A stretch of DNA of 924 bases, taken from assembly GCF_003334815.1 (NCBI RefSeq), contig NZ_QOWO01000113.1; one strand, written 5' to 3'. Position 1 is the first letter of the stretch, and each line of letters opens with the position of its first letter. The notes under the pieces were generated by a model. The model ran no database searches. It was not told the DNA's origin and saw only the letters and a program-made list of their open reading frames with translations. The position numbers and the translations under genes are program-made. This DNA comes from Escherichia coli (GTDB taxonomy: Bacteria > Pseudomonadota > Gammaproteobacteria > Enterobacterales > Enterobacteriaceae). This document shows, one piece after another, positions 50-569 of the stretch.

Positions 50-569
50 GTCAAAGCCAAAATACCCTTTTGAAAAGCGCCTTGAAGTCGTGAATCACTA
101 CTTCACAACTGATGATGGTTACAGGATCATCTCGGCACGTTTTGGTGTCCCCCGAACCCAGGTCAGGACATGGGTTGCCCTCTATGAAAAACATGGAGAA
201 AAAGGTTTAATTCCCAAACCTAAAGGCGTTAGTGCTGATCCAGAGTTGCGTATTAAGGTCGTGAAAGCTGTGATCGAGCAGCACATGTCCCTTAATCAGG
301 CTGCTGCTCACTTTATGCTTGCTGGTAGTGGTTCTGTAGCCAGGTGGCTGAAGGTCTATGAAGAGCGCGGAGAAGCTGGTTTACGCGCGCTCAAGATTGG
401 CACCAAAAGAAACATTGCAATATCAGTTGATCCAGAAAAAGCGGCATCAGCATTGGAGCTGTCAAAAGACCGACGCATTGAGGATCTTGAAAGGCAAGTT
501 CGATTTCTTGAAACGCGGCTTATGTATCTAAAAAAGCTGAAAGCCTTAGCTCATCCCACGAAAAAGTGA
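48..569 (+). CDS. insJ: IS150 OrfA (InsJ-like), 173 aa: helix-turn-helix DNA-binding protein with a C-terminal leucine heptad repeat; IS3-family transposition regulator and N-terminal part of the OrfAB transframe transposase
   Basis: Complete ORF from ATG 48..50 to TGA 567..569 in the supplied track. Predicted HTH segments at about aa 24-45 ([23 protein letters not shown], nt ~117..182) and aa 81-104 ([24 protein letters not shown], nt ~288..359). Leucines at 7-residue spacing (L147, L154, L161; nt ~486..530) consistent with the leucine zipper described for IS3-family OrfA proteins. The protein matches my recollection of E. coli IS150 InsJ. Confidence 0.95.
   Translation: MSKPKYPFEKRLEVVNHYFTTDDGYRIISARFGVPRTQVRTWVALYEKHGEKGLIPKPKGVSADPELRIKVVKAVIEQHMSLNQAAAHFMLAGSGSVARWLKVYEERGEAGLRALKIGTKRNIAISVDPEKAASALELSKDRRIEDLERQVRFLETRLMYLKKLKALAHPTKK

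Follow-up and report, generated by a model that had tools for sequence, protein, structure and literature searches.

Two helix-turn-helix modules and a zipper-like helix running into the frameshift site in OrfA of the Escherichia coli insertion sequence IS150

The window, by which we mean the whole 924-bp stretch of DNA analysed here, consists of bases 1–924 of IS150, that is, the left two-thirds of this E. coli element of the IS3 family (IS150 group). Its DNA is 100% identical to IS150 and was matched in 2850 of 5426 complete E. coli genomes, the median number of places in a genome being 2. RefSeq annotates the region as 'IS3-like element IS150 family transposase, programmed frameshift'. IS150-group elements show activity in production strains as well as in E. 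coli evolution experiments. The features of the window are listed in Table 1; the reference for the full-length element was a 1443-bp copy in E. coli strain 720632 (L001:1501-2943).

Table 1. Features of the IS150 window, with positions counted from its first base
Feature	Position	Strand	Details
IS150 left inverted repeat (IRL)	1..31	+	Window start is the exact IS end, 5'-TG
orfA (insA / ins150A)	48..569	+	173 aa, ATG start, TGA stop 567-569
HTH module 1 (aa 10-60)	75..227	+	Pfam HTH_28, E 2e-10; HTH helices aa 25-32, 36-54
HTH module 2 (aa 68-116)	249..395	+	Pfam HTH_28, E 1.3e-9; HTH helices aa 82-88, 94-114
Linker (aa 115-128)	390..431	+	Lowest pLDDT blocks (64-74); gap-rich, non-conserved columns
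Long alpha-helix (aa 129-168)	432..551	+	AlphaFold2 (AF2); pLDDT 85-97 over aa 131-160
Three predicted zipper heptads, a/d = I144/L147, V151/L154, L158/L161	477..530	+	Register with L147 = d
Slippery heptamer A AAA AAG, -1 programmed frameshifting	530..536	+	Sole AAAAAAG in the window
-1 frame (orfB / insB) read by OrfAB	536..924	+	Runs off the window into HTH_21 and rve (DDE)
OrfA-only C-terminal tail (aa 164-173)	537..566	+	L164, A166, L167 ~90% conserved
Stem-loop, frameshift stimulator	543..590	+	Perfect 10-bp stem 543-552 / 581-590, 6 nt past the heptamer

The reference copy carries TGTACTG at both termini and has a 3-bp duplication, CCC, on its two sides, and 22 of its first 31 bases match the reverse complement of its right end, so that it shows the TG...CA inverted repeats and the 3–4 bp target duplication that mark the IS3 family. 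A repeat search of IS150 with the default seed returned no inverted repeat, because the repeats are imperfect, whereas a direct end-to-end comparison detected them. The overlapping phase 0/−1 ORFs joined by an AnG slippery motif, which also mark the family, were found as well, the motif being A AAA AAG. For OrfAB, the conceptual −1 fusion of 456 aa, a score of 414.7 bits was obtained against NCBIfam NF033516 (IS3 family transposase; cut-off 160), model positions 1–369 aligning to aa 66–448, and Pfam placed HTH_21 at 216–269, rve at 292–390 (E 1.2e-28) and rve_2 at 397–451. Members of IS3/IS150 are expected to show D(57–60)D(35)E with K/R about 7 residues after E (PMC5771124); OrfAB shows this arrangement as D301-59-D361-35-E397 with K at E+7, the DDE core lying beyond the window, in the reference copy. 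These results indicate that IS150 is a bona fide IS3-family member.

Several observations concern the surroundings of the element and the remaining sequence. In several E. coli genomes (e.g. NZ_CP093317.1:164797-166497), the 924-bp query was matched in two pieces that together span about 1701 bp, and the annotation places an IS1A transposase between them; this looks like an IS1 nested in IS150. In strain 720632, a minus-strand pseudogene annotated as 'hypothetical protein, frameshifted' (L001:1332-1549) enters the left end of the element (window 1–49) and probably represents a host gene that the insertion disrupted, and hokE and IS421 lie just beyond the right end. A scan for promoters and terminators gave one promoter-like site at chance level (102–130) and no terminator. 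An Rfam match to the mir-15 precursor at 263–322, inside the coding sequence of the second HTH module, was dismissed as chance, as it was sub-threshold (20.5 bits versus a gathering score of 57.3, E 0.034).

The product of orfA, OrfA or InsA, was modelled with AlphaFold2 from 92 homologues (mean pLDDT 86.9). The pTM of this monomer model is 0.58, so the packing of its domains is uncertain. Helices were placed at aa 8–20, 25–32 and 36–54, at aa 65–77, 82–88 and 94–114, and at aa 129–168. The linker in front of the last helix varies in length among relatives and is rich in Pro and Lys. A homologue search over 1.84 billion representatives returned many proteins of 160–190 aa that align to OrfA from end to end. 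The original prediction, made from the letters of the window, concerned the stretch from base 117, the first of codon 24, to base 530, the last of the L161 codon (CTA, 528–530), and proposed for it two HTH-like segments followed by a leucine heptad repeat.

Both HTH-like segments were recovered. When the 173-aa protein was searched against Pfam, HTH_28 was matched twice, with weaker matches to HTH_23/29/32, and the two proposed segments, aa ~24–45 and aa ~81–104, cover the stretch from helix 2 through the turn to the recognition helix in module 1 and module 2, respectively. Each module combines a significant profile match to HTH_28 (PF13518) with a tri-helical fold. W42 in module 1 is invariant in 92 sequences, and W100 in module 2 is nearly so. 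In addition, the two halves of OrfA align to each other by BLASTP (30% identity, E 6e-5), and in an hhalign comparison of the family profiles of the two modules (probability 99.6%, E 1.1e-23) W42 is equivalent to W100. The possibility that a single domain had been counted twice was rejected, because the two matches have no residues in common, each forms a three-helix bundle of its own, and they align to each other as paralogues. As judged from these alignments, the two modules are tandem duplicates.

The alignment of OrfAB to the generic NCBIfam IS3 model begins only at aa 66, so that module 2 is the counterpart of the single HTH of the IS911/IS2 type. By the same alignment, module 1 (aa 1–65, window 48–242) is an N-terminal addition of the IS150 group that lies outside the generic IS3 model. 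No mention of two HTHs was found in the IS150-group literature that was searched. In a Foldseek search with the OrfA model, the paired domains of Pax6 and Pax5 and the DNA-binding domains of SETMAR and Mos1 ranked first, at E values of only ~0.2. A paired-like, bipartite reading of the two modules, in which they would superpose on the PAI and RED subdomains as in the Pax paired domain, the Tc3, Mos1, SETMAR and Sleeping Beauty transposases and IS630, is a lead from the model and not a result.

The InsA query also matched three longer proteins (P0085, P0086 and P0090; 547, 608 and 421 aa) in 5–6 separate stretches at 27–29% identity, and these proteins appear to be long arrays of the InsA-type HTH module.

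For the C-terminal part of OrfA, the helix of aa 129–168 is delimited by P129 and P170, has neither Pro nor Gly between these two residues, and contains the proposed leucine heptad of L147, L154 and L161. The spacing L-x6-L-x6-L was found in 11.5% of OrfA shuffles and is thus unremarkable by itself, and a crude 3.5-residue hydrophobic Fourier score, which peaked at aa 141–168, did not rise above the shuffles, 48% of which reached it. Leucine at three d positions together with L, I, V or M at three a positions occurred in 0.16% of OrfA shuffles. If only the spacing, the non-significant periodicity, the small number of Leu heptads (three) and the uncertain packing of the monomer model (pTM 0.58) were considered, the leucines could be chance features of a Leu-rich amphipathic helix that packs on the HTHs or acts as a spacer.

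The conservation of the heptads speaks against such a chance origin. Among 75 homologues with 25–50% identity to OrfA, Leu was found at L147 in 63, at L154 in 71 and at L161 in 73 (84–97%), position a151 is L, I, V, M or F in 85%, and position a158 is Asn in 49. Asn at an a position is the classic buried Asn of GCN4-type zippers (GCN4 Asn16). The heptad that had been proposed from a single sequence is therefore confirmed in OrfA and conserved across the family, and we regard this conservation, a property of the aligned sequences, as the decisive evidence for the zipper heptads.

Profile searches led to the same view. A tail profile built from the C-terminal 45–55 residues of OrfA in the family alignment was searched against the PDB, and the best match was 8qnv, 'Transposase', a solved 51-residue fragment that spans exactly this helix (E 1.1e-9). 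Beyond 8qnv, the matches were almost only coiled coils, namely GCN4 variants (from E 1.8e-5), vimentin, FtsB, keratin and tropomyosin-GCN4. Thus, over aa 140–170, where a coiled coil had been anticipated, the helix is confidently predicted, conserved and heptad-patterned, and its profile matches GCN4, vimentin and FtsB. Moreover, the linker sets the helix apart from the HTHs, and leucine-zipper function is experimentally documented in IS911 and IS2. Taking both sides together, we consider a chance origin of the leucines very improbable.

A canonical leucine zipper, with Leu at at least four successive d positions, was not found in IS150. The fourth d position (168) is Ala in OrfA and Ser in OrfAB, whereas it is I, V or L in 77% of the family, and because of Ala168 the IS150 motif is, under the strict four-Leu definition, a three-heptad, zipper-like motif. 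The uninterrupted helix and the hydrophobic a positions expected of a zipper are both present in OrfA 129–168. The g/e' pairs are mixed, R143–E148 being favourable, Q150–E155 neutral and R157–K162 repulsive.

The oligomeric state of the helix was approached with an AlphaFold2 model of a linker-fused tandem of the OrfA tail, in which two helices were formed with core pLDDT >90 and pTM 0.54. A Foldseek search with this model, in which parallel versus antiparallel packing was sought, gave a best E value of 4.6, and a PDB search with the linker-fused tandem alignment matched only the (GGGGS)n linkers of engineered proteins. The orientation of the helices is thus not readable from the tandem model, which leaves room for a higher-order or antiparallel assembly (trimer or tetramer) that would bridge two IR-bound complexes, instead of a GCN4-like parallel dimer. 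Such an assembly would fit with the trimeric GCN4 variants among the top coiled-coil matches in the PDB, and with the replacement of the dimer-specifying Asn at position a158 by Leu or Val in IS150 and its enterobacterial near relatives (window 519–521), a replacement that could have changed the oligomer specificity of the IS150 subclade. Conversely, beta-branched residues or Leu at a with Leu at d are typical of dimeric coiled coils. Furthermore, the OrfAB[1–149] fragment of IS911 binds the IR as a dimer (PMC2909936). We therefore judge a higher-order or antiparallel assembly unlikely, and a leucine-zipper-type coiled coil remains the favoured description of the helix.

The slippery heptamer consists of the third base of the L161 codon followed by K162 and K163, which occupy heptad positions e and f. 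The same phase and the same YLKK context of A AAA AAG were found in relatives of 59% (a Klebsiella plasmid), 31% (Ralstonia) and 31% (ISEnfa3) identity. Since the slippery site lies on Y-L(d)-K(e)-K(f), the lysines that it forces are placed at solvent-exposed heptad positions. Downstream of the heptamer, the arms of the stem-loop are GCCTTAGCTC and GAGCTAAGGC, the orfA stop codon lies in the loop, and the structure has an MFE of −20.4 kcal/mol (z −4.58), none of 200 shuffles folding as well. Rfam holds no family for this stem-loop, which is the classic IS150 frameshift stimulator. High-level −1 frameshifting at the A AAA AAG of IS150 with the stem-loop has reportedly been observed (work of Vogele and colleagues, 1991). 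A frameshift rate of ~50% is quoted from Vogele et al. 1991 in citing papers.

In two further relatives, L007:1301-1775 and L005:1292-1768 (Ralstonia CP059377, Bacillus cereus AP023016), ...AYLKS replaces ...AYLKKL, and the annotated transposase CDS of the Ralstonia copy is 1366 nt long, compared with 1367 nt in its sister copy (L003). These differences may reflect variation in the length of the A run, a sequencing error or an inactivated copy.

The zipper had been proposed to end at the slippery site. This holds in so far as the heptamer starts on the L161 codon, but the hydrophobic pattern continues past it in the OrfA frame (L164, L167). In this frame, L164-x-A166-L167-[I/V/L]168 is conserved across the family, with Ala168 in IS150, and the positions are hydrophobic in 88% (164), 99% (167) and 77% (168) of the 75 homologues. 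In a comparison of four elements, the peptides of the −1 frame diverge and are polar (e.g. VRNLDSRTRF), whereas L-x-A/T-L-[AVLI] is kept in the 0 frame. Since the 0-frame tail is conserved and the −1 frame is not, selection follows the OrfA frame, and since the hydrophobic pattern beyond the slip site is present in the OrfA frame only, the zipper ends of OrfA and OrfAB differ.

The conservation of YLKKLxAL might instead have been imposed by the RNA signals of frameshifting (slippery heptamer, spacer and stem-loop) and by the overlapping orfB frame, and not by a function of the OrfA tail. K162 and K163 are indeed forced by A AAA AAG, so that their conservation cannot be separated from the constraint on the nucleotides of the slippery site, the stem-loop overlaps the codons of the tail, and the region is read in two frames. 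Such constraints do not readily account for the four elements, in which the downstream nucleotides as well as the −1 peptide diverge freely while the 0-frame motif is kept, nor for the conservation of L164, A166 and L167 in 75 distant relatives. We consider it highly unlikely that RNA constraint explains the conserved tail, and selection on the OrfA tail itself is the preferred explanation.

Overall, we conclude, with a probability of roughly 0.88, that InsA consists of two HTHs, a linker and a helix with a three-heptad zipper that runs into the slip site, and that it would modulate InsAB. In the proposed mechanism, the two tri-helical modules of InsA arose by tandem duplication, and a coiled coil of the leucine-zipper type is predicted for the last three heptads of the ~40-residue helix. 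Embedded in this zipper is the −1 slippery site, its lysine codons following right after the last d-leucine. If the ribosome slips, OrfAB is made, with both HTHs, the three heptads, HTH_21 and the DDE catalytic domains; without a slip, InsA is made with its own conserved hydrophobic tail (L164, L167 and position 168). The original prediction that the fusion keeps the DNA-binding and dimerisation modules agrees with the coordinates, as aa 1–163, containing both HTHs and the three heptads, are retained in OrfAB. The computations establish the identity of the element, its domain content, its predicted fold, the duplication, the conservation of the heptads, and the conserved position of the slippery site and of a strong stem-loop downstream of it. 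Beyond this, analogy with IS911, IS2 and ISSau2 suggests that the HTHs of InsA may bind the terminal inverted repeats, that InsA and InsAB may assemble with themselves and with each other through the zipper, and that InsA may modulate, mostly inhibit, transposition through these oligomers. In the literature searched, no direct test of oligomerisation or regulation by IS150 InsA was found.

A more far-reaching proposal has two parts, namely that the HTH pair of the IS150 group is a bipartite, paired-like reader of the IR, and that the slip site is a zipper switch acting through a hydrophobic cap found in InsA only. We put this combined proposal forward tentatively and regard it as rather doubtful. 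If it is true, the duplicated HTHs would read a two-part IR site, like Tc1/mariner and IS630 and unlike the single-HTH IS911 and IS2. The L164/L167/[I/V/L]168 cap would then be present only in unshifted InsA, so that oligomers of InsA would differ from InsAB homodimers in stability or stoichiometry, and this difference would set the balance of regulator to transposase. Neither the bipartite HTH reading nor the zipper switch was found described for IS150 in the literature searched.

The two-HTH-plus-zipper layout of OrfA is real, but it is ordinary and already known. An HTH, a leucine zipper and a frameshift inside the zipper form the textbook layout of the IS3 family. IS150 belongs to the classic elements, and any Pfam scan would reveal its two HTH_28 domains, so that the finding matters little beyond correct annotation. 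As a known feature of a known element, it is of low interest. For work on the IS150 group, two points are sharpened: the first 65 residues are a duplicated, extra HTH outside the generic IS3 model, and the oligomerisation ends of OrfA and OrfAB are, by sequence, not identical.

The InsA family shares with GCN4 its hydrophobic a positions and d-leucines, the ending L-K-K-L and, in the family consensus, an Asn at one of the a positions (profile E 1.8e-5 to 0.3), IS150 itself having Leu158 in place of the Asn. This similarity is one of convergent coiled coils and not of homology. Unlike GCN4, InsA is without a basic region, and its DNA binding would be carried out by the HTH modules.

The fragment in 8qnv is a product of ISWco1, a member of the IS3 family carried by Apilactobacillus kunkeei plasmids, and its relationship to the C-terminal helix of InsA is one of homology (profile E 1.1e-9, single-sequence E 0.069, aligned over aa 137–171). 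Both share the pattern L..V..L...V..L..L..L, whereas in 8qnv, which comes from a Gram-positive element, Glu replaces the first slippery-site Lys (YLEKL). No relevant paper turned up when the literature was searched for PDB 8QNV.

ISSau2 of S. aureus belongs to the same IS150 subgroup and likewise has an A6G frameshift and an HTH, at aa 70–120 (PMC5771124). Its OrfA has no catalytic activity and reduces transposition driven by OrfAB (PMC5771124). The ISSau2 paper annotates one HTH and mentions no zipper (PMC5771124), whereas two HTHs are found in IS150 OrfA. In IS2, mutations of the LZ-like segment abolish binding and transposition (PMC3219604).

A close parallel in layout is IS911, in which OrfA and OrfAB, as in IS150, carry an HTH and then a leucine zipper at the C-terminus of OrfA. 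According to the accounts of Haren et al. (1998, 2000) given in PMC3219604 and PMC10379815, the −1 frameshift of IS911 occurs on A6G inside the last heptad, so that OrfA and OrfAB have most of the zipper in common but differ at its end, and the zipper mediates homo- and hetero-multimerisation of the two proteins. The two elements differ in that the zipper of IS911 has four Leu, whereas that of IS150 has three d-leucines and Ala, and in that IS911 OrfA has 100 aa and one HTH, whereas IS150 InsA is 173 aa long and begins with an additional, duplicated HTH.
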